DNA from: a bacterium
Lineage (GTDB): Bacteria > Patescibacteriota > Patescibacteriia > Patescibacteriales > UBA12075
Assembly (NCBI GenBank): GCA_043820875.1
Contig: JBDRDI010000034.1
Coordinates: forward strand, 11,318-75,317
DNA: 64,000 nucleotides
Direction of reading: 5' to 3'
Shown here: one piece after another, positions 2,080 through 12,366 of the stretch
How positions within the stretch are numbered: position 1 is the stretch's first letter
How the letters are laid out: every line of letters starts with the position of its first letter
Made by a program: the position numbers and the translations under genes
Notes under the pieces: generated by a model
Told to the model about the DNA's origin: nothing
Database searches by the model: none
Seen by the model: only the letters and a program-made list of their open reading frames with translations

Positions 2080-2592
2080 TCAATGCAAATTGCAGTGTTT
2101 GACCCAAATTGCTACTAATGAAAAATATTCTTCTGCAAAAAATCCGAAAAATCTTGATTCATTAGAAAATTTAATTTCTTTTAAAGCGATATCCTTTTCA
2201 AGATTATTAAAAAGCGGCGTATATTCACCGTTCTCTTGTATATCATCTCTTATTAATCCACTTCTTGGCAATTCCTTTAAGGTGATATTGGTTAAATGTT
2301 TTAACTTTGATGTTAGTGCTTTTGCTAACACATCGTCTAATTTGCAAATCTCACATTGATTCTGATTATAATTTTTGAAAACTATAACAATTTTTTTATT
2401 TTCCTTTTCATCGGTTTCCGGAATGTTATTATTGATAGCAAACGATGGATTAATCAATTCCCTCACTTTATCACTGGAAGTATTCATGATTTTTTCGATT
2501 GCTTCTATTTTTGGTTGATCGTCTTGCTTTTTAAGAAGATTAAAAATTTGATTTTTAAGTTTATCAAATTTATTGTTTTGATTTTTGCTCAT
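2080..2592 (-). CDS. Hypothetical protein, candidate toxin partner of the Panacea-domain protein
   Basis: 170-aa ORF whose start overlaps the upstream DUF4065 gene by 23 nt (translational coupling). No domain recognised. The C-terminal SRFFGFFAEEYFSLVAIWVKH is faintly RelE/ParE-like. Confidence 0.5.
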   Translation of the reverse strand: MSKNQNNKFDKLKNQIFNLLKKQDDQPKIEAIEKIMNTSSDKVRELINPSFAINNNIPETDEKENKKIVIVFKNYNQNQCEICKLDDVLAKALTSKLKHLTNITLKELPRSGLIRDDIQENGEYTPLFNNLEKDIALKEIKFSNESRFFGFFAEEYFSLVAIWVKHCNLH

Positions 2593-3040
2593 AATAACTT
2601 TTCATTTCTTCGATTGTAATTTCAGCAGACGAGGATTCATAAGACATTAATCCTGCTCGTGTTTTTTGCCACGGTTCTTCACTATGCGATAATGCTTCTA
2701 AATAATTTGCATCATATTTACCATAAACATTCCAAATTGAATCCAAAACATTCTTTTCTTCTGTCGAAATGTCTGGGAAATCAGATTCTTTGACATCTTG
2801 TTTAATTTCGTTATAGCCAAACTTTTTAAATTCTAAATAAACAATCGGCACGCTTGGGCCATGTATCCATGCTTCTATTTTGTCATCAAATAGTTTTTTA
2901 TTATTAATAACTAAATTCCACGCCTGAGAATAATAAAGTAATTTTTGTAGTTTTTTATTAGTGAAATCGGGCTTTGGATTTTTGTTATTTTTTAAAATAA
3001 AATAATCAGCAACTTGTAGCACTTTAGTTTTTTTAAGCAT
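2570..3040 (-). CDS. Panacea/DUF4065 domain protein (SocA/PanA-type antitoxin-like)
   Basis: KKLQKLLYYSQAWNLV...FDDKIEAWIHGPSVPIVYLEFKKFG is the characteristic DUF4065 core. Confidence 0.75.
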   Translation of the reverse strand: MLKKTKVLQVADYFILKNNKNPKPDFTNKKLQKLLYYSQAWNLVINNKKLFDDKIEAWIHGPSVPIVYLEFKKFGYNEIKQDVKESDFPDISTEEKNVLDSIWNVYGKYDANYLEALSHSEEPWQKTRAGLMSYESSSAEITIEEMKSYYEQKSKQ

Positions 3041-3353: not shown

Positions 3354-3572
3354 ATGACTAAGACAATATATACAAATGAATATAAACAAATAGCTGAAAA
3401 GTTGAAAAGGGCGAGGATTGAGGCTGGTTTAACCCAAAAAGAAGTTGCTGAAAAAATTAAAAAGCCCCAATCATATATATCAAAAGCTGAAAGCGCTGAA
3501 CAAAGAATTGATGCTGTTGAATTAAAATTATTTGCAAGATTGTATAAAAAAACAATTAATTATTTTTTATAA
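3354..3572 (+). CDS. XRE-family HTH controller (C) protein of the R-M system
   Basis: 72 aa. HTH segment LTQKEVAEKIKKPQSYISKAESAEQRID. Its stop lies 1 nt before the endonuclease ATG. Confidence 0.8.
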   Translation: MTKTIYTNEYKQIAEKLKRARIEAGLTQKEVAEKIKKPQSYISKAESAEQRIDAVELKLFARLYKKTINYFL

Positions 3573-3573
3573 T

Positions 3574-4743
3574 ATGGCTAGAGTAAAAAGAAAGTGGCAT
3601 AAAAAATTTATTAAGTACATGAATTTTATTGTCAAACATCCGAATTACACCGGGATGCCTGAGGCTTATAAGGCTGACGGTTCTATTAGATGGGTAACTA
3701 GCGGTAAAGGTGAAATAGGACAAAAACGACTTAAGTGGTGGGATAAAAAAAGAAAGGAACTAAAAATAGAAAAAGAGGGACCATGGATTTCAAAAGTAGC
3801 GAGAGCGATTCATCCGACAGGATTGAAGCCGTGCCAAATTTGTGGTAAGGAAATGAGCTTGGATTACATCTATCCGAATAAAAGAAGTGGATTTAGTCCA
3901 GGCGCTATGAGTAACGCCCCTGACCGCTTCGATGGTTACCACACCTACAATTTATGTTGCAGAAGTACCCAAGATACCGGAAGACATAAAGATAATTTAA
4001 ATCGCTATGGTGAAGATAGACGCGCTTATGAAAATTGGGCAGACGGGGACTGGAAAGCTGCGAGTTGGTTGATGAAAGTTTTTAATAAACATAGGGTTAG
4101 TCCTGATCACATAGGTCCAATCTCTTTGGGGTTTTCTCATAATCCTAAGTTTAATCCTCTTACTCCGGCCAAAAACTCAGCAAAAAATAACAGAATGACT
4201 TATGCGGATGTAAAAGATTTAATCAAACTAGAAAAAAAAGGTGCGAGTGTTGTTTCGTGGCATTCAAAATATATTTGGGATCTCTTAAAGAATAAAATAA
4301 AGAATGATTCTGACGCATTAAGGTTAAGCAAAATAATGCGAAAAAATTTGCATCAGATTTTAATAATTTTAGCCGAGATATCATCGAATGGATATGATCA
4401 ATTTTTGGTTTCAAATTTTTTACACCCAGAATATGCATATTTTTCGATTTCTTTCAAAGACTTTAATCCTAAAGACGGCTCCTATAAAGAGATGACTAAA
4501 ATTCCGGGGAAAAAGAAACAATATAAAAATAATGCAAAACGATATATTCGTATTTCGCTTGAATCTCTAGCGGCGTACAGAGAGGTAAAAAACAGAAACA
4601 CTCAAACTCGTCAATCAAAAAAAGTTCGAGATGCTTTAGATAAAACTTTGTTATTGTTAAAAAACAAGCATAATGCAGGAGCTAAAAAGAGCCTCTATAA
4701 AGTGTGTTCTATACTTAGTAAAGAATCGGCTAAAAATTATTGA
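3574..4743 (+). CDS. Putative restriction endonuclease, HNH (beta-beta-alpha-Me) type
   Basis: Follows the C gene directly and converges on two MTase genes. Carries CQIC plus SPDHIGPISLGFSHNP...NSAKNN (HNH-like). The ORF-track start at 3532 overlaps the C gene, so ATG 3574 (MARVKRKW) is preferred. Confidence 0.55.
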   Translation: MARVKRKWHKKFIKYMNFIVKHPNYTGMPEAYKADGSIRWVTSGKGEIGQKRLKWWDKKRKELKIEKEGPWISKVARAIHPTGLKPCQICGKEMSLDYIYPNKRSGFSPGAMSNAPDRFDGYHTYNLCCRSTQDTGRHKDNLNRYGEDRRAYENWADGDWKAASWLMKVFNKHRVSPDHIGPISLGFSHNPKFNPLTPAKNSAKNNRMTYADVKDLIKLEKKGASVVSWHSKYIWDLLKNKIKNDSDALRLSKIMRKNLHQILIILAEISSNGYDQFLVSNFLHPEYAYFSISFKDFNPKDGSYKEMTKIPGKKKQYKNNAKRYIRISLESLAAYREVKNRNTQTRQSKKVRDALDKTLLLLKNKHNAGAKKSLYKVCSILSKESAKNY

Positions 4744-5860
4744 TCAATTTTTTCGCGTATTCTTTGGGTGATAATTTGCCAGCCATAAACTCTTGATATA
4801 ATCCTTTCGCGTTTATTTTTTTATCAAAAATATTTTCACCTCCATTAACCTTAATTGAAGGAAGATTGCTTATAGCATCTTTAACGGAAATATATCTCGC
4901 TTCATCAGTTATTATTTCTTCGGGATAACAATCCTCTGGATTTCCAGATAAAACGCCAATCATCACAACTCTTTTTCTTTTTTGTGGAACTCCGAATTTA
5001 ACTGCGTGCATTTTTTTACCGTGCATTTTATATCCTAGATCAGAAAAACTTTCTTTAATACTTTCAAAAGTTTTCCCGTTATTGCTTGTTAAAATTCCTT
5101 CGACGTTTTCAACCAAAATCACTTTTGGTTTTATTTTTTTTACAACCTCAACAAACTCTTTGAATAAGAAATTTCTCGGGTCGTCAACAATTCGTTTACC
5201 TGCGTAAGAAAATCCCTGGCAAGGAGGGCCGCCAATAATAATATCAATTTTTTTACCTTTAATACTATTATAAAGTTTTTCTTTTACATCTTTATTTGTA
5301 ATATCACCCTCAATAAGAATAGTCTTTTTGTGATTATTTTTATATGTTTCACATGCATAATTGAAATTATCATTCGCGGCAACAATATTAAACCCTGCCC
5401 ATTCAAAGCCCTTGCTTAACCCTCCTGACCCACAAAATAAATCCAAAACATTTTTAGTGTTTGTTTTTCTTTTTATTTTTTTTGCGATAGAATAAGCCAG
5501 TAGAGGTGGAACCGCATTGCCAATCTGTTTACAAAGTGATGTTTTTGATCCATAAAAAATATAATCGTCAGGAAACGATTGCAATCGTGCTGCTTCACGC
5601 GCGCTTATTACCCGGTTGTCTTTTGGATGAATATAGGCTCCGTTACCCGGCCTATTAAAATAAGTTGTTATGGTATAGCTTGGTTTATTCCAACTTAATC
5701 TTCCATACAAAGTCGTTCTTCCTCCGGTTTTTCTTATTTGTTCTAGTCTTTTTGATGGTATGTGTAATGGAATATTTTTCCAATTACCACCCTCGGGAAT
5801 CGACATGACCATTTTTAGATCGTTTATACTAAGAGGGTAAGTTACATGATTATATAGCAT
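4730..5860 (-). CDS. DNA (cytosine-5)-methyltransferase, circularly permuted motif order
   Basis: Motif IX/X-like RLSWNKPSYTIT and QIGNAVPPLLA come first. Motif I DLFCGSGGLSKGF, IV GGPPCQGFSYAG, VI ENVEG and VIII QKRKR follow. Confidence 0.9.
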   Translation of the reverse strand: MLYNHVTYPLSINDLKMVMSIPEGGNWKNIPLHIPSKRLEQIRKTGGRTTLYGRLSWNKPSYTITTYFNRPGNGAYIHPKDNRVISAREAARLQSFPDDYIFYGSKTSLCKQIGNAVPPLLAYSIAKKIKRKTNTKNVLDLFCGSGGLSKGFEWAGFNIVAANDNFNYACETYKNNHKKTILIEGDITNKDVKEKLYNSIKGKKIDIIIGGPPCQGFSYAGKRIVDDPRNFLFKEFVEVVKKIKPKVILVENVEGILTSNNGKTFESIKESFSDLGYKMHGKKMHAVKFGVPQKRKRVVMIGVLSGNPEDCYPEEIITDEARYISVKDAISNLPSIKVNGGENIFDKKINAKGLYQEFMAGKLSPKEYAKKLINNF

Positions 5861-7718
5861 AATTTAAACTTTTGTTTATTGTTGTAATTAAATTTTCTTT
5901 TCGATATTTGCTAAGAACAAAATTAATTTCATCTTTCGTTAGTCGGTATAATTTAAAAATTTCAATATTGAGCTCAGCAACGTCATCATCATTTTTTTTA
6001 TTTTTTATTTTGCTAACTAAATTTTCAATTTTTGTTTTTTGATTTTCATTTGGTATTACTATCGGTAGTTCAGCAATTTCGTAATTACTTATATGATTAT
6101 TTGAGTTTGTTATTTTAAATCTCCAGTCTAGCAGTAGTGAATTTAAAACTCCTAACAAATAATCAAGAGTAATTTTTTTATCTTCAAAAAGACTTTCCTT
6201 TTTACAAATATAATTACAAGAATTTCCGAGAACCATATTGGCAGGAATTTTTGTAAACTTTAATCTTTTATTTCCATGTATATTTGATACTTGCTGACAA
6301 ACAAGTCGATCTTTTGATAAGTGTTCTTTTTTCCCGTTTAATTTTAAAATAAAATTTTCATTTACAAATAGATTTCCCAATTCAAAATTGAATTCGGCAA
6401 TATTAATGCCTCTTAACAATGGGTAGTCGGTTTTTTTCTCAGATATAAATTTTTTATCAAGTGTTAAATCTAGCTCACCTCGAAGATTATGAATGTCTGA
6501 AAAAGATTTTACTTTGGGATGGCCGTTTATTTTTTTAAGAACATTCCAGCCTTCTTCGTTTTCAGTTATAATCGGAGCTGATTCAGAAATTGTTTTAATG
6601 GTTTCGATTTTAATTTTTATACTTCTCTTTTCAAAATCAGAAGCGTTAATTACTTCAGGATTTATTTCTAACACAGCGCCGAGTTTGCTTTTATTTAATG
6701 CGAAGAAACAAAAAGCTTGCGAAATGTCAGGGAAAAATTCATTTTTTTCTGGTATAATATAAATTTTTGAAAACGAATAATTTTCCATTAATCTTTTTCT
6801 TAATTTTTCGCTTTGGCGATCGTTTAATAAAGTAACGGGAATTAATAAACCGATACGTCCATTCTTGTTTGTTAAATTTTCAATTATTTCTTCAGTAAAA
6901 ATTTTGTAATAGTTCAACGTACCCTCATTGTATTTGTAGATATTATTAATTTTGATAAAATCTACTAAATCCTTGATATTGATACGTTCATTTTTTTCGT
7001 CCACTGAATATTTATTAGAGTTTTCTTTTAATAATTTATATGGCGGGTTTGTTAATACCATATCAAAACCTTCTTCAACAAAAAATATTTTTTTAAGATT
7101 GTTTTTAATTATTATGCCATCCGATAAGTTAAAAAGTGAGTTGCCAGAATAAAAATTATTTTTATTTATACAGATAATTATTTTATACTTAAACGCTACA
7201 TATAATGGAATTATTTTGGTTAGTAATTTTATTGCATCATGATCTATGTCGGCACAAAAAATATTTTCAATTACTTTTTGTGCTTTTACTTTATTTAAAT
7301 CCGGAATGACACTAAACATATAATCAATATATGACAAAACGAAAATCCCAATTCCTGAGCATGGCTCTAAAAATTTAATTTTCAAAAGGTCTTCATCTTT
7401 TTTTACAAATTTAAAAGCCTCTTTTGTAATCTGTTTTGCAACCTCAAAATCAGTATAGTAAATGCCAAAATGTTTTCTTTCGTCGGTTTTATCAATTTTT
7501 TTATTTTCTTTGCTTTTCTGATGTATCAAGCCAATTAATTGAATAATAGAAATTGGATTTATGGAATTATCAGTTTTTAAATTTTTATACAAAAAATCAT
7601 CAATTGAGTTTTTGATTTTTGGGCTGTCGGTTAAGAAGCTAAAAAGTATATTAATGAGCTCATCATTATTTTTATATTTGGAGCAGATAGTATTATAAAT
7701 TTGAAAAATTTTCTTCAT
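5850..7718 (-). CDS. N6-adenine DNA methyltransferase (Eco57I/TaqI-like, with C-terminal target-recognition domain)
   Basis: Motif I FLEPCSGIGIFV, motif IV VLTNPPY, and a C-terminal TRD-like LLGVLNSLLLDWRF. No nuclease domain evident. It overlaps the m5C MTase gene by 11 nt. Confidence 0.85.
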   Translation of the reverse strand: MKKIFQIYNTICSKYKNNDELINILFSFLTDSPKIKNSIDDFLYKNLKTDNSINPISIIQLIGLIHQKSKENKKIDKTDERKHFGIYYTDFEVAKQITKEAFKFVKKDEDLLKIKFLEPCSGIGIFVLSYIDYMFSVIPDLNKVKAQKVIENIFCADIDHDAIKLLTKIIPLYVAFKYKIIICINKNNFYSGNSLFNLSDGIIIKNNLKKIFFVEEGFDMVLTNPPYKLLKENSNKYSVDEKNERINIKDLVDFIKINNIYKYNEGTLNYYKIFTEEIIENLTNKNGRIGLLIPVTLLNDRQSEKLRKRLMENYSFSKIYIIPEKNEFFPDISQAFCFFALNKSKLGAVLEINPEVINASDFEKRSIKIKIETIKTISESAPIITENEEGWNVLKKINGHPKVKSFSDIHNLRGELDLTLDKKFISEKKTDYPLLRGINIAEFNFELGNLFVNENFILKLNGKKEHLSKDRLVCQQVSNIHGNKRLKFTKIPANMVLGNSCNYICKKESLFEDKKITLDYLLGVLNSLLLDWRFKITNSNNHISNYEIAELPIVIPNENQKTKIENLVSKIKNKKNDDDVAELNIEIFKLYRLTKDEINFVLSKYRKENLITTINKSLNYAI

Positions 7719-7734
7719 TTTGTTAATTTAGATT

Positions 7735-8343
7735 TTATTTTGTATAAGATAAAATACCCTTTACGACTCCCTCGACTTTAAAATTATTTTTATCTGCCAA
7801 AATAGCTTTGTATGACTGGTTAAGTGAAGTAAGAAAAAATTTATCATTATCAATCTGCTGAATTTTTTTAATAAGCACTTCGTCATTGTTAACACATATG
7901 ACAATATTTCCGTCTTCAGCTTCGTTGCCCCTTTTTCCAATCACTAGATCGCCATTTTTAATTTTCGGCTCCATTGAATCTCCTCTCGCCCGAACTAGAA
8001 AAGCGTCAGCGGAAGGAAAACCTAAAATCTTGGTTGATATTGGAATTCTATCAATCGGATTACCGTCCAGCATAGATCCGTTGGGCCCGCATTGTGCCAT
8101 TCCGTATAAATTCAAAAATGCGATTTTTTTATCCGGCTCATCAGCAAGAATTTGATAGTCCTGTGAATTATAGGGATTTTTACGTAAATAACCTTTTTTC
8201 TCAAGTTGTTGTATGTGATGATAAATTACACTCGGAGAAGAAACACCTAATTCGGTCTGTAATTCCCTAATAGTTAGTGGCTCATCAATATTATTTTTCA
8301 GTAATTTTAGTAATTTTTTTTGAGTAGGATGTAATTTTTTCAT
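7735..8343 (-). CDS. LexA-like repressor (winged-helix domain plus S24 peptidase)
   Basis: N-terminal LTIRELQTELGVSSPSVIYHHIQQLEKKGYL, a cleavage-loop-like GMAQCGPNG, Ser motif ARGDSMEP and Lys in EVLIKKI. Its stop is only 16 nt upstream of the m6A MTase start. Confidence 0.8.
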   Translation of the reverse strand: MKKLHPTQKKLLKLLKNNIDEPLTIRELQTELGVSSPSVIYHHIQQLEKKGYLRKNPYNSQDYQILADEPDKKIAFLNLYGMAQCGPNGSMLDGNPIDRIPISTKILGFPSADAFLVRARGDSMEPKIKNGDLVIGKRGNEAEDGNIVICVNNDEVLIKKIQQIDNDKFFLTSLNQSYKAILADKNNFKVEGVVKGILSYTK

Positions 8344-8369
8344 AAAGAGGTTGTTGATAACTATAATAT

Positions 8370-8434
8370 ATTATATCATGTGGATAAGAAGTGCGCAAGA
8401 ACTTATTGACTTGTTCTAATATTTGTTCTATATT
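8370..8434. promoter_or_regulatory. Back-to-back divergent promoters with a shared palindromic operator candidate
   Basis: Plus strand: TTGACT (8406-8411), 17 nt, TATATT (8429-8434). Minus strand: TTGCGC (8398-8393), 17 nt, TGaTATAAT (-10 at 8375-8370). The palindrome AGAAC-N10-GTTCT (8398-8417) spans both -35 boxes, and a third GTTCT lies at 8425-8429. Confidence 0.45.
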
Positions 8435-8467
8435 TAATATAGATTAATAATTAATTAAAAGAGTCCT

Positions 8468-8740
8468 ATGACAAATGAAAAAAAAGGATCCTCTAATCGG
8501 GGCAAAGAATTAACAATTATTGTAAACGGTCGGGAAAAGATCGTAACAAGTAACGAGCTTTCGTTCGTCCATGTTGTTGAATTGGCTTTTGGTGTTATTC
8601 CGACCAATCCGAACACTATTTATACAGTGACCTACAAAAGAGGACACGGGAATAAGCCCGAGGGCATGATGGTTGACGGGGATGTAATTAAAATTAAAGA
8701 TGGAATGATTTTTAATGTCACAGCAACTGATAAATCATAG
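8468..8740 (+). CDS. Small ubiquitin-like (beta-grasp, multiubiquitin-type) protein candidate
   Basis: 90 aa. ELTIIVNGREKIV...YTVTYKRG...[18 protein letters not shown] resembles, from memory, Ubl proteins encoded next to prokaryotic E1-like genes. It overlaps the next gene by 26 nt. Confidence 0.55.
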   Translation: MTNEKKGSSNRGKELTIIVNGREKIVTSNELSFVHVVELAFGVIPTNPNTIYTVTYKRGHGNKPEGMMVDGDVIKIKDGMIFNVTATDKS

Positions 8741-9890
8741 CCCCGATCTCAAAAAGCTTAGAGATGAAGGTTTTGAAGTAAAAATTAAATCTGGTTATTT
8801 GTTGATAAGCGGTGTTCCATATTTGAATTTTAATAAAGAAATAAAAAATGGAATTCTAGTATCTAAATTAGCCTTAACAGGGGATAAGACAATAAAGCCT
8901 GATACCCATGTTGTTTTTTTTGTTGGCGAATATCCATGTCATAAAAATGGTTTAGAAATAGAACAAATTAGACATGACAGTCGTGAGCAGACACTTGTCG
9001 AGGATTTGATAATTAATCATTCTTTTTCTAACAAGCCGCGTGATGGATATACAGATTATTATGAAAAAATGAGTAGATACGTTGATATAATTTCTGCCCC
9101 GGCTCAAACGATAGATAGCTCTGTCACGGCAAAAACTTTTAAAATTATTGAATCTGATGATGAGGAATTCGTGTTTCATTATATTGATACTAATTCAAGC
9201 CGGGCAGAAATTATGTTTATATCTGATAAACTAAAAAATCAAAAAATTGGAATAGTCGGACTTGGGGGCACAGGTTCTTATATTTTGGATTTTATTTCTA
9301 AAACTCCTATAAAGGAAATTCACCTTTTCGATGGAGACATCTTCGCACAACACAACGCATTTCGCGCGCCGGGTGCTGCCTCGAAAGAAAAATTGAGCCA
9401 AAACATTTCCAAAATTCAATATTTGAAAGAAGTCTATTCGAATATGCATAAAAATATTGTTCTGCACCCAGGATATCTTAATCAAGAAAATATCAATCTA
9501 TTGCCTGGTTTAGATTTTTTCTTTATTTGCATTGATAAGGGTGAAATTAAAGAAGAAATTTTTAATCGACTAATTGATCAAAAAATTCCCTTCATTGATA
9601 CTGGAATGGGTATAGAAATCGTTGGAGATAAATTAATAGGGATTGTCCGAGCCACGTTAAGCAAAGAAAACCGAAGAGATCACATAGCTAAAAGGGTATC
9701 CTTTTTTGATCGAAAAGACGAAAACTATTCAAACAATATTCAAATCGCCGAACTTAATGCACTCAACGCTGCGTTAGCAGTGATAAAATGGAAAAAGCTA
9801 AATGGACTTTATAATGATCAAGAAAAGGAATGTCATAACACATATACTATCGATTTAAATATGTTATTAAGTGACGACCATGAAACATAA
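8715..9890 (+). CDS. ThiF/E1-like adenylyltransferase with an N-terminal Cys-containing (possibly E2-like) domain
   Basis: Rossmann/adenylation motifs [16 protein letters not shown] and [17 protein letters not shown]. The ~170-aa N-terminal domain carries GEYPCHKNG. Confidence 0.8.
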
Positions 9891-10248
9891 ATTTGTAAAA
9901 AATATACCCGAATTTTTGGAAGATGGTATTATTTATATATCCATTGATTACAGTACGGTCGCGCATAAATGTTGTTGTGGGTGTGGCAATGAAATAATTA
10001 CACCGCTTTCCCCGACGGATTGGCAACTGATTTTTGATGGCGAAACAATTTCTTTGTACCCGTCAATCGGGAATTGGAACTTACTATGTAAATCCCATTA
10101 CTGGATAACAAATAACAGAATTGAATGGAGCAAAAAATGGACGGATAAAAAAATTTACGAAGGCAGACATTTGGATAATCTTAATAAAAAAAGACATTAC
10201 AACAAAAGACAAGAAAATAAAAAAATGTTTTGGCGTTGGTGGAAATGA
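9871..10248 (+). CDS. Cys-rich zinc-ribbon-like protein (DUF6527-like partner of E1/Ubl operons)
   Basis: 125 aa. [56 protein letters not shown]. It overlaps the E1-like gene by 20 nt. The family assignment is from memory. Confidence 0.6.
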
Positions 10249-10254
10249 ATTTTG

Positions 10255-10282
10255 TTGACTAAACTTATTTAAGTGGTAAAAT
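10255..10282 (+). promoter_or_regulatory. Promoter candidate for the RelA/SpoT gene
   Basis: TTGACT (10255-10260), 16 nt, then an extended -10 TGgTAAAAT (-10 hexamer at 10277-10282). Confidence 0.4.
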
Positions 10283-10351
10283 AAAATTGGAACATTTATG
10301 TTTTAAAATAGCCCTATCTTGCAGCTATGTTTATAAAATTTATTTAAATAT

Positions 10352-11386
10352 ATGTCATTAATTAATAAATACGATTTTTTAAAAAAATATAATATTGATG
10401 AAAATAAATATAAGAAGGCAACTATTAGTTGGGATGATTTGGTAAACATATTTAATAATTACGAAATAACAAAAAATGATTTTGATCCAATTGCTCAATT
10501 TATTGTTAGCAAATTAAGAAAAGTAGAAAAAGTTCATTTTGCTCAATATAGAATCAAAAATTCAGAGCATTTAATAGAAAAGATAATTAGAAAAAAAATC
10601 GAGAAAAGTTGTGATATAAAAGTTGATAATTATAAAGAAAAAATTACTGACTTGATAGGTGTTAGAATTTTGCATCTTTTTAAAGAGGATTGGAACAAAA
10701 TTCATAAATTTATAATAGATGAGTTTGATCTATTGGGAAAACCAACTGCTTATGTAAGAAAAGGTGACGAGGAAAAATATATTGAACATTTCAAACAAAA
10801 TAATTGTGATATTGAAGAACATAAATTAGGTTATAGGTCTGTACATTATCTTATAAAATCCGCGTTATCAAAAAAACAATATATTACGGAAATACAGGTG
10901 AGGACTATATTCGAAGAAGGTTGGAGCGAAATAGATCATAAAATAAGATATCCTTATAATAAAAACAACATTATTCTTGAAAAATTTTTAACTATTCTTA
11001 ATAGGTTTGCAGGCAACGCCGACGAAATGGCTTCATTTATAAGTTTTCTTCAACGAGATCTTGATAAAAATAAAGCAATTATCCAAAAATTGAAACATGA
11101 AATAGACGAATTAAAAATTGACCACGAGAAAAAGAAAGAAATAAAAGAAAATATAGATAATGTAAGCGGCCTATATGCCAGTGCGTCTATTCTTTCAAAG
11201 TATTCGGGGCTAGTAGTAGCTGTGAAAGAAGCAAGCAATGTAATTAGCCATTCGGGATTATTAGAAGCAACAAAAATTGCACAACAGGTGGTCGGAAATA
11301 CAGAAGCTTTAACGGCGGCAAAAAATGTACAGCAAGTAACCAAGAGTTTGGGGGCTGTAAGACCAGTAATTGATGAGAATAATTAA
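10352..11386 (+). CDS. RelA/SpoT-domain nucleotidyltransferase (small alarmone synthetase / toxSAS-like) with a C-terminal coiled-coil and Ala-rich extension
   Basis: DLIGVRILHLFKEDW, GYRSVHYLIKS and EIQVRTIFEEGWSEIDHKIRYP are the RelA_SpoT synthetase core. No hydrolase, TGS or ACT domains. Confidence 0.85.
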   Translation: MSLINKYDFLKKYNIDENKYKKATISWDDLVNIFNNYEITKNDFDPIAQFIVSKLRKVEKVHFAQYRIKNSEHLIEKIIRKKIEKSCDIKVDNYKEKITDLIGVRILHLFKEDWNKIHKFIIDEFDLLGKPTAYVRKGDEEKYIEHFKQNNCDIEEHKLGYRSVHYLIKSALSKKQYITEIQVRTIFEEGWSEIDHKIRYPYNKNNIILEKFLTILNRFAGNADEMASFISFLQRDLDKNKAIIQKLKHEIDELKIDHEKKKEIKENIDNVSGLYASASILSKYSGLVVAVKEASNVISHSGLLEATKIAQQVVGNTEALTAAKNVQQVTKSLGAVRPVIDENN

Positions 11387-11526: not shown

Positions 11527-12366
11527 ATGGACAATAAACAAAAAGAAAAACTAATAAATGATTATTTAAAAACACACTTTGAGGAAATGTTGATTAAGGA
11601 CATAGAAATGATCAAAGAAGCAAATTTAAAATTTACATTCCCTTATATCCTCTTAGTTGTTTCGGGCATAGATTTTTTAGGAGGATTGGAATTGGGATTT
11701 TATAAAATATCTAGCAATAAGGAAATTGGTAATTCTAGAGAACGATCGTGCTATTTCATTGAAAAATATATGGGCAAATTTAATGATTTATATAAAGATA
11801 GTCGAATCAGCAATATTCTTTACAGATCTATGCGTTGTGGTGCTTCACATCAAGCGATGTACGGTCAAGAAATTGAGAGCTCAAATTGGTTGTATCCCAA
11901 AGATAAACATTTAAATCATATGATAGATTTTAAAAAGAAAGACAGAATTTATATACATGCCCTTCAGTTAGCAAATGACTTCAAAGAAGCTTATAAGATA
12001 TTTAAAAAAGATTTTATCAAAATGAGCCCAAGTATAGCCTATGATAATTTAGGGCATATAATAACCAAGGCAGAAGTTGATAGCTTTCAAGAATTGTTAA
12101 AAGAATTAAAAAAGAGAGGGCTTAGTTTTGATGCTAAGACAGAAGCTGAAGCTAATCCACAGGTTAACAGAATAGACGTCGATACAGGAAGAGTTTTTTA
12201 TAATGAGGTACTAGAAACCACCGTGACAGCATTACATGAAGAGGATGATTCAAAACCAGAGGCTTCTGCGTTGCCTTCATCTTCACCTATTATTACGTCA
12301 ACGCGAACTTCATCATTGGGGATTGAGCCTGATGGTTTTATAGTTAAGAATGCTGACGATGAATAA
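11527..12366 (+). CDS. Hypothetical protein (orphan, with a disordered acidic/Ser-rich tail)
   Basis: 279-aa ORF bracketed by the direct repeats. No recognisable domain. Confidence 0.6.
   Translation: MDNKQKEKLINDYLKTHFEEMLIKDIEMIKEANLKFTFPYILLVVSGIDFLGGLELGFYKISSNKEIGNSRERSCYFIEKYMGKFNDLYKDSRISNILYRSMRCGASHQAMYGQEIESSNWLYPKDKHLNHMIDFKKKDRIYIHALQLANDFKEAYKIFKKDFIKMSPSIAYDNLGHIITKAEVDSFQELLKELKKRGLSFDAKTEAEANPQVNRIDVDTGRVFYNEVLETTVTALHEEDDSKPEASALPSSSPIITSTRTSSLGIEPDGFIVKNADDE

Follow-up and report, generated by a model that had tools for sequence, protein, structure and literature searches.

A putative FpRel-type small alarmone synthetase, best read as independent cargo of a low-GC defence island beside a Type II Bub operon

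We analysed a 64,000-nucleotide stretch of bacterial DNA (contig JBDRDI010000034.1 of assembly GCA_043820875.1, positions 11,318 to 75,317 of the forward strand; Patescibacteriota), and refer to this whole 64-kb stretch as the window. The subject here is a gene at 10352..11386 whose product is a RelA/SpoT-family synthetase, and which a preliminary description of the window had tentatively linked to the cassette of ubiquitin-like (Ubl) and E1 genes just upstream. The best reading of our results is that this synthetase gene is horizontally mobile cargo of a defence/mobile island of low guanine-plus-cytosine (GC) content, and not a component of the neighbouring operon, which is of the Bub type. 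The gene, the element in front of it and the regions of its product are the following.

10352..11386 (stop codon included), + strand: open reading frame (ORF) of 344 residues with the Pfam domain RelA_SpoT; putative FpRel-type small alarmone synthetase (SAS), a synthetase-only RelA/SpoT homologue (RSH).
10255..10282, + strand: promoter-like element TTGACT-16-TAAAAT with TG, from a consensus scan, in the 103-bp gap 5' of the synthetase gene; weak evidence.
10352..10519, + strand: N-terminal helical region, residues 1-56, conserved across the family; F9, W27 and I33 are invariant in alignment A1.
10520..10966, + strand: SYNTH catalytic core, residues 57-205, from the Pfam match (residues 67-204) and alignment to S. 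aureus RelP.
10967..11176, + strand: long C-terminal helices of coiled-coil character, residues 206-275; AlphaFold 2 (AF2) helices at 207-253 and 258-283.
11177..11383, + strand: hypervariable Ala/Val/Ser-rich tail, residues 276-344; predicted local distance difference test (pLDDT) score below 50 and no recognisable domain.

The preliminary description had presented the product as a stand-alone, 344-residue enzyme with synthetase motifs only, and both the reading frame and the domain content agree with this. A Pfam scan places RelA_SpoT (PF04607) at residues 67-204, with 68.1 bits against a cutoff of 27, and finds no other domain in the protein: no TGS or ACT domain and no TPR family. The RelQ-type GTP diphosphokinase model of NCBIfam matches below its threshold (41.5 bits vs 320). 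No PADLOC defence model matched the synthetase meaningfully; we discounted hits to Cas11b (E 4e-4) and PDC-M40C (E 6e-3), which are weak and fall on helical, low-complexity stretches. Searched with the family hidden Markov model (HMM), the 64-kb window yielded no second RSH-type gene, and the HDxxED hydrolase motif was not found in it either.

The gene lies on the same strand as the operon upstream, as had been described, and the gap between the BubE (DUF6527) gene and the synthetase gene measures 103 bp (10249-10351) instead of the 104 bp first given. Neither this gap nor the 140-bp gap downstream holds an ORF, and no terminator-like site was found in the 103-bp gap. What had been called the gene's own promoter is a promoter-like site in an AT-rich region where such sites do not exceed the number in shuffled sequence (18 seen vs 23.7 expected). 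Position 10255, from which the gene had been counted, is the start of that element and not of the gene, which begins at 10352.

The catalytic motifs of the core are all intact. These include YRIKnsehLIEKiiRK, DLIGVRILHLF, GYRSVHYLI and EIQVRTIFEEGWSEIDHKIRY, among them the three (GVRILHLF, GYRSVHYLI and EIQVRTIFEEGWSEIDHKIRY) that had been picked out from the sequence at the start. Invariant columns in alignment A1 comprise R67, K69, K77, R80, D100, G103, R105, Y161, R162, S163, H165, E180, Q182, R184 and T185; by this alignment and by alignment to RelP, the synthetase keeps the basic ATP-binding residues, the DxxGxR motif, the G-loop GYRSxH and ExQxRT. Across alignments of 36 and 259 sequences, residues 1 to about 235 are strongly conserved and amount to a complete RelP-like enzyme, and the family consensus, helical pattern included, holds to about residue 275, after which conservation collapses.

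The structural model follows the same division. The AF2 model, built on a shallow alignment of 36 sequences, has pLDDT values above 90 for residues 1-190 (about 95 in the helices at residues 6-12, 17-22 and 27-56), 85-91 for residues 241-270 and below 50 for residues 278-344. Residues 206-275 show heptad periodicity, with a power of 2.16 at a period of 3.5 and below 0.6 at the other periods tested, and these helices are a probable oligomerisation or regulatory element. The tail at residues 276-344 is, on the model, probably disordered. An extension of about 110 residues, part coiled coil and part Ala/Val-rich, had been described as unusual; the extension exists, and it is typical of its family, since most of 120 homologues among the matches listed have 320-410 residues and the common helical stretch.

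The tail itself is another matter. Beyond residue 275, the most frequent residue of a column reaches a frequency of 0.18-0.28 across 259 family members, with 42-56% gaps, and tail identity to the window protein is 5-13% even where the cores of its relatives are 55-60% identical. Among 1.84 billion representative proteins, the 69-residue tail found two weak matches only, both of them long repetitive proteins. Tail length across the family runs from 0 to 195 residues (median 77); at least five Lys or Arg stand among the final 15 residues in 85 of 248 tails, and a CxxC..CxxC zinc ribbon is present in 21 of 259. The tail of the window protein has a net charge of +1 and a pI of 8.4, and ends in …VIDENN, a C-terminus that is unconserved and neither Gly nor Ala. 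Tails also appear modular, as one subgroup shares the C-terminal motif …GRK-D/E-FVSIMDI-L/I-N…KK and others end in Lys-rich runs (alignment A1; P0008, P0009, P0010, P0012; P0030, P0034, P0037, P0053, P0055, P0106). The preliminary description had suggested that the tail could be autoinhibitory or a sensor. Such hypervariability and near-uniqueness would suit a module that serves regulation or interaction in one lineage; unlike the C-terminus of CapRel, it is not predicted to be a folded domain.

We then asked which synthetases the protein most resembles. Searches of the Protein Data Bank (PDB) with the single sequence (E 2e-10) and with the family profile (E 1e-12) return RelP and RelQ only, the profile alignment running from position 10 onto RelP residue 29 onwards; at E<=1, neither search returned a chain of a long RSH, CapRel, FaRel2 or Tas1. 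Foldseek likewise ranks RelP and RelQ first (E 2e-10; template modelling (TM) score up to 0.75, normalised to the target), followed by long Rel proteins, with CapRel (PDB 7ZTB) at rank 41 (TM 0.35, 14% identity). Family members typically have an acidic core (median pI 6.1, net charge -5); RelP and RelQ, according to the paper on toxic SAS (toxSAS) enzymes, are charge-reversed where FaRel2 has its basic tRNA-binding patch.

Within the family, the B. anthracis pXO1 protein WP_001176696.1 (349 residues) has 45% core identity to the window protein, and at a 40%-identity cutoff both fall in one average-linkage cluster of 207 sequences; the sister cluster holds 51 sequences, mostly proteobacterial or prophage. 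This is clustering by p-distance and average linkage, not a phylogeny. The supplement of Jimmy et al. 2020 gives WP_001176696.1 the label FpRel; as the window protein clusters with that sequence, we file it as FpRel-type, a putative assignment drawn from one anchor and p-distance clustering, not from the published subfamily HMMs. Housekeeping enzymes of the RelP/RelQ type, which the preliminary description had set against its own proposal, are the nearest with solved structures, yet the protein falls in another subfamily, one of patchy distribution.

The gene lies in a low-GC part of the window. GC content is 0.27-0.33 over 1-14 kb and 0.36-0.43 downstream, and it is 0.285 at 10-12 kb, where the synthetase gene lies. 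Homologues are numerous and scattered: 3,926 were found at E<=1e-3, and the family occurs in at least 515 species genomes of many phyla, the best 80 of these matches serving as the genome-scan loci, with gene calls in homologue loci made by a simple longest-ORF procedure. A tblastn search of plasmids returned 104 records, 95 of them from Bacillus and including B. anthracis pXO1, where the gene for WP_001176696.1 adjoins XerS. A further 56 viral or prophage contigs carry a family member, with terminases, portal proteins, baseplate proteins and integrases among the neighbours, and the family matches phrog_2211 (E 4e-53).

The relatives nearest to the window protein, with 50-60% core identity, are mostly island-borne. 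The synthetase genes of P0002 and P0003 follow a restriction-modification (RM) methylase and a T5orf172 gene, and that of P0011 sits between an integrase and a NERD gene. In the closest relatives a T5orf172/MUG113 gene lies about 45 bp 5' of the synthetase, after the RM methylase (L001 7360-9098; L002 291-2029; L161 4154-5907), and may form a local two-gene module with it. A minority of neighbours in species genomes are real defence genes, such as Hachiman, Lamassu, PARIS AriA and mad3.

No partner gene recurs. All-against-all clustering of neighbours, over 85 and then 139 loci, found no gene family conserved within three genes on either side of the synthetase. The largest neighbour cluster covers 12 of the 139 loci (L030, L074, L116, L139 and L146 are examples) with no constant position, and coincides in part with loci that gave C5 DNA methylase hits; a C5 methylase also occurs in the window, at 4730-5860, within its Alw26I-type RM system. 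Together with the empty flanking gaps, this bears out the earlier statement that no antitoxin gene adjoins the synthetase.

A single chain lacking a trans antitoxin could be a fused sensor-toxin of the CapRel type. The SYNTH domain would then be a toxin, acting by pyrophosphorylation of tRNA CCA ends or by draining ATP, and the extension a cis-antitoxin that senses a phage protein, such that binding of the trigger frees the toxin and aborts the infection. A hypervariable tail is what an arms-race sensor should have, and the setting is in keeping: a defence island around the gene, RM or integrase islands around close relatives, genomic neighbours that include Hachiman, Lamassu, PARIS or mad genes, and the occurrence of the family in prophages and PHROGs. 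The core of the window protein is also basic. CapRel is, however, distant in structure and was not found by sequence or profile; the tail is predicted to be disordered and not a folded domain able to dock at the active site; cores in the family are typically acidic; PADLOC gave no meaningful match; and most genome contexts are not defence islands. We consider this explanation unlikely.

The enzyme might instead be a housekeeping SAS that supplies basal or stress (p)ppGpp in the manner of RelP and RelQ, possibly as the main synthetase if the host has no long RSH, and that stands at the edge of an island by chance. Its intact motifs, its housekeeping nearest solved relatives and the lack of another RSH gene within the 64-kb window would suit this, as would the ordinary neighbours of most genomic relatives, including the common neighbourhood of P0008 and P0009. 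Moreover, P. syringae DC3000 depends on RelA, SpoT and fpRel to make its (p)ppGpp (PMC7146990), so that an fpRel contributes to the pool of that strain. The same species speaks against the idea: Atkinson et al. 2011 list fpRel for B. anthracis, Idiomarina loihiensis and P. syringae DC3000 but not for P. syringae B728a, which makes the gene strain-specific there. The window gene itself is within the low-GC island, where Bub lies on one side of it and another island ORF on the other; its nearest relatives occupy differing mobile contexts in unrelated organisms, and family members, scattered patchily over many phyla, are also found on plasmids and prophages. A housekeeping role is, on this balance, distinctly unlikely.

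We turn to the operon directly upstream, and to the repressor gene that faces it.

8468..10248, + strand: Type II Bub operon; context, not part of the synthetase system.
8468-8740, + strand: BubA, a Ubl (Pfam Multi_ubiq).
8715-9890, + strand: BubBD, an E2-E1 fusion (DUF6791 and ThiF; NCBIfam PRK06153.1-4, 582 bits).
9871-10248, + strand: BubE, a DUF6527 serine protease (Pfam DUF6527).
7735-8343, - strand: LexA-like repressor with a winged helix-turn-helix and an S24 peptidase, below the TIGR00498 cutoff; divergent from bubA.

By its domains, this Ubl trio is a self-contained Type II Bub operon, which in the relevant passages of PMC11601596 consists of BubA, a BubBD E2-E1 fusion and BubE, a rel gene not being a defining component. 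The preliminary description had compared the layout to type II CBASS (an antiphage signalling system based on cyclic oligonucleotides), in which an E1-E2 enzyme acts on a nucleotidyltransferase. Carried over to this locus, the idea is that BubBD would attach BubA to the synthetase, or else join the synthetase to a target, as Cap2 primes its cGAS/DncV-like nucleotidyltransferase (CD-NTase). The shared strand, the 103-bp gap and the lack of a terminator-like site between BubE and the synthetase gene are all compatible with such a partnership. An accessory effector would also be attractive for Bub, as passages of PMC11601596 state that Bub targets are unknown and that no tested Bub operon protected E. 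coli from phage.

No linkage between the two was found in the loci compared. A tblastn search with the window's BubA, BubBD, BubE, LexA-like and 279-residue ORF proteins found homologues of BubA, BubBD or BubE within 8-10 kb in 0 of 141 rel loci (85 genomic or metagenomic and 56 viral). Conversely, 0 of 22 other Bub loci (18 metagenomic and four viral, the latter from an alignment-based scan, as a single-sequence BubBD scan of viral contigs returned none) contain a RelA/SpoT-family gene, even with the family HMM at E<=1. The Bub trio is retained in all 22 of these loci wherever the contig allows, and the genes that flank it vary from locus to locus. Among 544 Bub operons, the main text of PMC11601596 reports associations with regulators only.

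Regulatory sequence tells the same story. An AGAAC-N10-GTTCT palindrome at 8398-8417, in the lexA-like/bubA intergenic region, overlaps a promoter-like -35 element. A search for GAAC-N4-12-GTTC found this one copy in the island, in the bubA promoter, and none upstream of the synthetase gene, and the count of GAAC..GTTC across the window is at chance level; a LexA-type operator shared by Bub and the synthetase was rejected, as the palindrome is not repeated upstream of the latter. The enzyme, in addition, is not a CD-NTase, and its unconserved …VIDENN C-terminus ends in neither Gly nor Ala. With no linkage to Bub in either direction, no repeated operator and variable flanks, the adjacency is best read as that of independent cargo genes brought together by chance in a defence island, not as a functional partnership. 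The CBASS-like link is not supported by these results, the lack of co-occurrence being the very finding that its proposers had said would count against it. At the level of conserved association a Bub partnership is already largely refuted; we hold it to be very improbable as a general explanation, and that Bub conjugates its Ubl to the synthetase in this one island is scarcely to be expected.

Two further observations concern the Bub operon. The BubA encoded here and 19 of 19 homologues (among L086-L101 and L163-L166) end in …V-T-x-T-(D/N)-(K/R)-S, with a terminal Ser; Type I BubA is described with a C-terminal Gly, and the passages of PMC11601596 are silent on the Type II C-terminus. With the LexA-like gene, the damage-responsive regulators beside Bub would number three kinds, CapW/BrxR and CapH plus CapP being those already published. 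The gene upstream of Bub in one other locus (L092) looks LexA-like from its N-terminal sequence, as judged by eye.

The remaining genes of the island are listed here.

2080-2592, - strand: 170-residue ORF that overlaps the Panacea antitoxin gene and lies downstream of it; no Pfam or PHROG hit.
2570-3040, - strand: SocA_Panacea antitoxin (81 bits).
3532-7718: complete type IIS RM system of the Alw26I/Eco31I/Esp3I type, with an endonuclease and separate C5 and N6-adenine methylases.
11527-12366, + strand: 279-residue gene of an ORFan family, downstream of the synthetase; not part of the synthetase system.

The first two (2080-3040) probably form a PanA-type toxin-antitoxin pair with an unclassified toxin. 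The Alw26I-type endonuclease ORF has a TTG start and scores just under the NCBIfam cutoff. For the 279-residue ORF there was no Pfam, PADLOC, NCBIfam or PHROG hit, and its family comprises seven proteins. As a partner of the synthetase it was rejected: none of the 141 rel loci has a homologue, and its relatives occur in other islands of RM or defence type that contain no RelA/SpoT gene. These homologues (L177-L182) stand directly after an MmeI/Eco57I-type methylase and a ResIII helicase, or have DUF4238 on one side and SNF2/NOV_C plus Schlafen-AlbA genes on the other, and the ORF may be an uncharacterised RM or defence accessory gene.

How might such an enzyme work? We think it rather probable, taking the whole as a composite, that the protein is an FpRel-type SAS that is carried as independent island cargo, is regulated through its C-terminus, makes alarmone and slows growth. 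Judging from its family, the core would use ATP as pyrophosphate donor and the 3'-OH of a purine nucleotide as acceptor; GDP or GTP is the likeliest acceptor, ADP or ATP a possible one, and the product would be (p)ppGpp or (p)ppApp. The part that fpRel plays in P. syringae DC3000 lends this indirect support. The heptad helices at residues 206-275 would bring about oligomerisation and keep the enzyme under control, probably at low activity, by analogy with Pag1B/GRel of PANGU, the TPR-bearing Tde-SAS and CapRel. The tail at residues 276-344 would be a lineage-specific module that binds a regulator, a trigger or a cellular structure. Activation would lead to an alarmone burst and slowed growth, a response that might help the cell to adapt to stress or to abort a phage infection; by these analogies, a role in defence would be plausible.

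A more specific version, which we regard as possible though doubtful, holds that FpRel-type synthetases are single-gene sensors for abortive infection or stress, kept as inactive coiled-coil oligomers. The tail, disordered, Lys-rich or zinc-ribbon-bearing according to lineage, would bind a protein of the phage, or a host factor that has been displaced, and so release a burst of (p)ppGpp or (p)ppApp. FpRel would then be the partner-less, alarmone-producing counterpart of CapRel and of the PANGU pair of a nucleoid-associated protein (NAP) and GRel.

Several points weigh against the composite account. The FpRel assignment has a single anchor sequence and p-distance clustering behind it, and FpRel is itself reported to be paraphyletic. 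AF2 confidence is low over residues 191-235, a conserved stretch. Of the 56 viral loci, 46 fall in the sister proteobacterial clade and not in that of the window protein; neighbours in species genomes are mostly ordinary metabolic and regulatory genes (190 Pfam families, 148 proteins); and P0008 and P0009, which are among the nearest relatives, have a common conserved chromosomal neighbourhood, such that some lineages may use the enzyme for housekeeping. The window protein and its close relatives are known from sequence alone, from which their function is read. Finally, the core of the window protein is basic (pI 9.0, net charge +6), unlike the family's typical core, and the toxSAS authors state that no clear sequence signature tells tRNA-modifying from nucleotide-modifying SAS. 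The basic core may be an effect of the Lys-rich, AT-rich genome, but it might equally point to nucleic-acid substrates. Because of this core, and because there is no such signature, the substrate is the main uncertainty.

If the composite account is true, the window protein adds a member to a SAS subfamily that has been known since 2011 and has hardly been studied, and FpRel-type enzymes also circulate in low-GC uncultured lineages, where they share islands with RM, toxin-antitoxin and Bub systems. The picture at family level is one of a conserved coiled coil and a hypervariable tail, with no fixed partner gene and with a sister clade that includes NA37-adjacent, PANGU-like pairs, and on these features FpRel is a fair candidate for an alarmone switch that is regulated and acts in stress or against phage. 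The lack of linkage is of use as well: RelA/SpoT enzymes should not be counted as accessory or effector genes of Bub from this locus.

Comparison with known systems places the protein more closely. Like the window, type II CBASS puts a nucleotidyltransferase-type gene beside an E2-E1 fusion in a defence island; its enzyme, however, is a CD-NTase (SMODS), whereas the one here is an RSH synthetase with RelA_SpoT as its only domain. The C-terminus at which Cap2 conjugates a CD-NTase is a small residue, for instance Gly or Ala. Membership of a type II CBASS-like system was rejected on the type of enzyme and on the lack of conserved operon linkage (0/141 and 0/22). A toxSAS toxin-antitoxin module, of FaRel, FaRel2, PhRel, PhRel2 or CapRel with a trans antitoxin, was likewise rejected, there being no conserved neighbour in 139 loci.

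CapRel(SJ46), a fused toxin-antitoxin tRNA pyrophosphokinase, resembles the window protein in being a single chain of 343-344 residues (PDB 7ZTB) with an N-terminal SYNTH fold, a variable C-terminal region, no separate antitoxin and an occurrence in prophages and islands. It differs in that its C-terminus is a folded domain, as opposed to a low-confidence tail, and in being a distant fold match with no sequence or profile match; CapRel-type membership was set aside on the tail (pLDDT below 50, no domain) and on the rank and identity of 7ZTB (41 and 14%). The CapRel C-terminus has a zinc-finger-like domain, which the zinc ribbons in 21 of 259 family tails loosely resemble. DsRel, or Tde-SAS (SAS-TPR), of Treponema denticola has a RelP/RelQ-like catalytic domain and a C-terminal extension, as does the window protein. 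In Tde-SAS the TPR domain brakes synthesis, and all DsRel carry a TPR domain of about 180 residues (PMC10434055); DsRel membership was rejected, since the Pfam scan found no TPR family in the synthetase.

With RelP (SAS2) and RelQ (SAS1) of Firmicutes the window protein has all synthetase motifs in common (RxKxxxxxxxKxxR, DxxGxR, GYRSxH and EIQxRT…W…HKIRY), and on this resemblance it probably has the same enzymology, using ATP and GDP or GTP to make (p)ppGpp. Identity is only about 20-24%, however; RelP and RelQ are about 210-240 residues long and end near the point where the extension starts, and they are core genes of Firmicutes, whereas the window family is patchy and mobile. FpRel proteins, such as WP_001176696.1 of pXO1 and that of DC3000, are like the window protein in architecture and size (349 vs 344 residues). 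The pXO1 protein shows the same conserved N-terminal region, helices after SYNTH and variable tail, and FpRel, like the window gene, is accessory, occurring on a plasmid, in prophage-like regions and in a strain-specific manner. The differences lie in the tail, whose sequence is unrelated, and in the host, which is a low-GC metagenome-assembled genome and not a member of the Firmicutes or Proteobacteria.

The closest parallel in layout is with PANGU. PANGU type I joins a YejK/NA37-type NAP and the GRel toxSAS Pag1B in bicistronic operons; Pag1B consists of SYNTH, a helical linker and a C-terminal partner-binding domain through which it is controlled, is an inactive tetramer when alone, and makes (pp)pGpp upon NAP binding (bioRxiv 10.64898/2026.04.06.716658). 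The window is not a PANGU locus, because it has no NA37 gene (tblastn with three NA37 queries gave nothing better than E=3) and because the tail is not acidic (net +1) and not a folded domain, whereas PANGU has an acidic, DNA-mimicking C-terminal domain; membership was rejected on the missing gene and the non-acidic tail. In two sister-clade loci, L121 and L124, whose synthetases have cores 38% identical to that of the window protein, by contrast, an NA37/YejK-type gene lies directly beside the synthetase, divergent in the former (6882-9014) and convergent in the latter (7902-10148), as against bicistronic in published PANGU. An approximate YejK query found two loci, which are the same two NA37 neighbours that Pfam had flagged independently, and both may be PANGU pairs. 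The window protein resembles Pag1B in its succession of SYNTH, helical linker and C-terminal module, and this shared layout supports the view that the C-terminal extension would be the control point of the enzyme.

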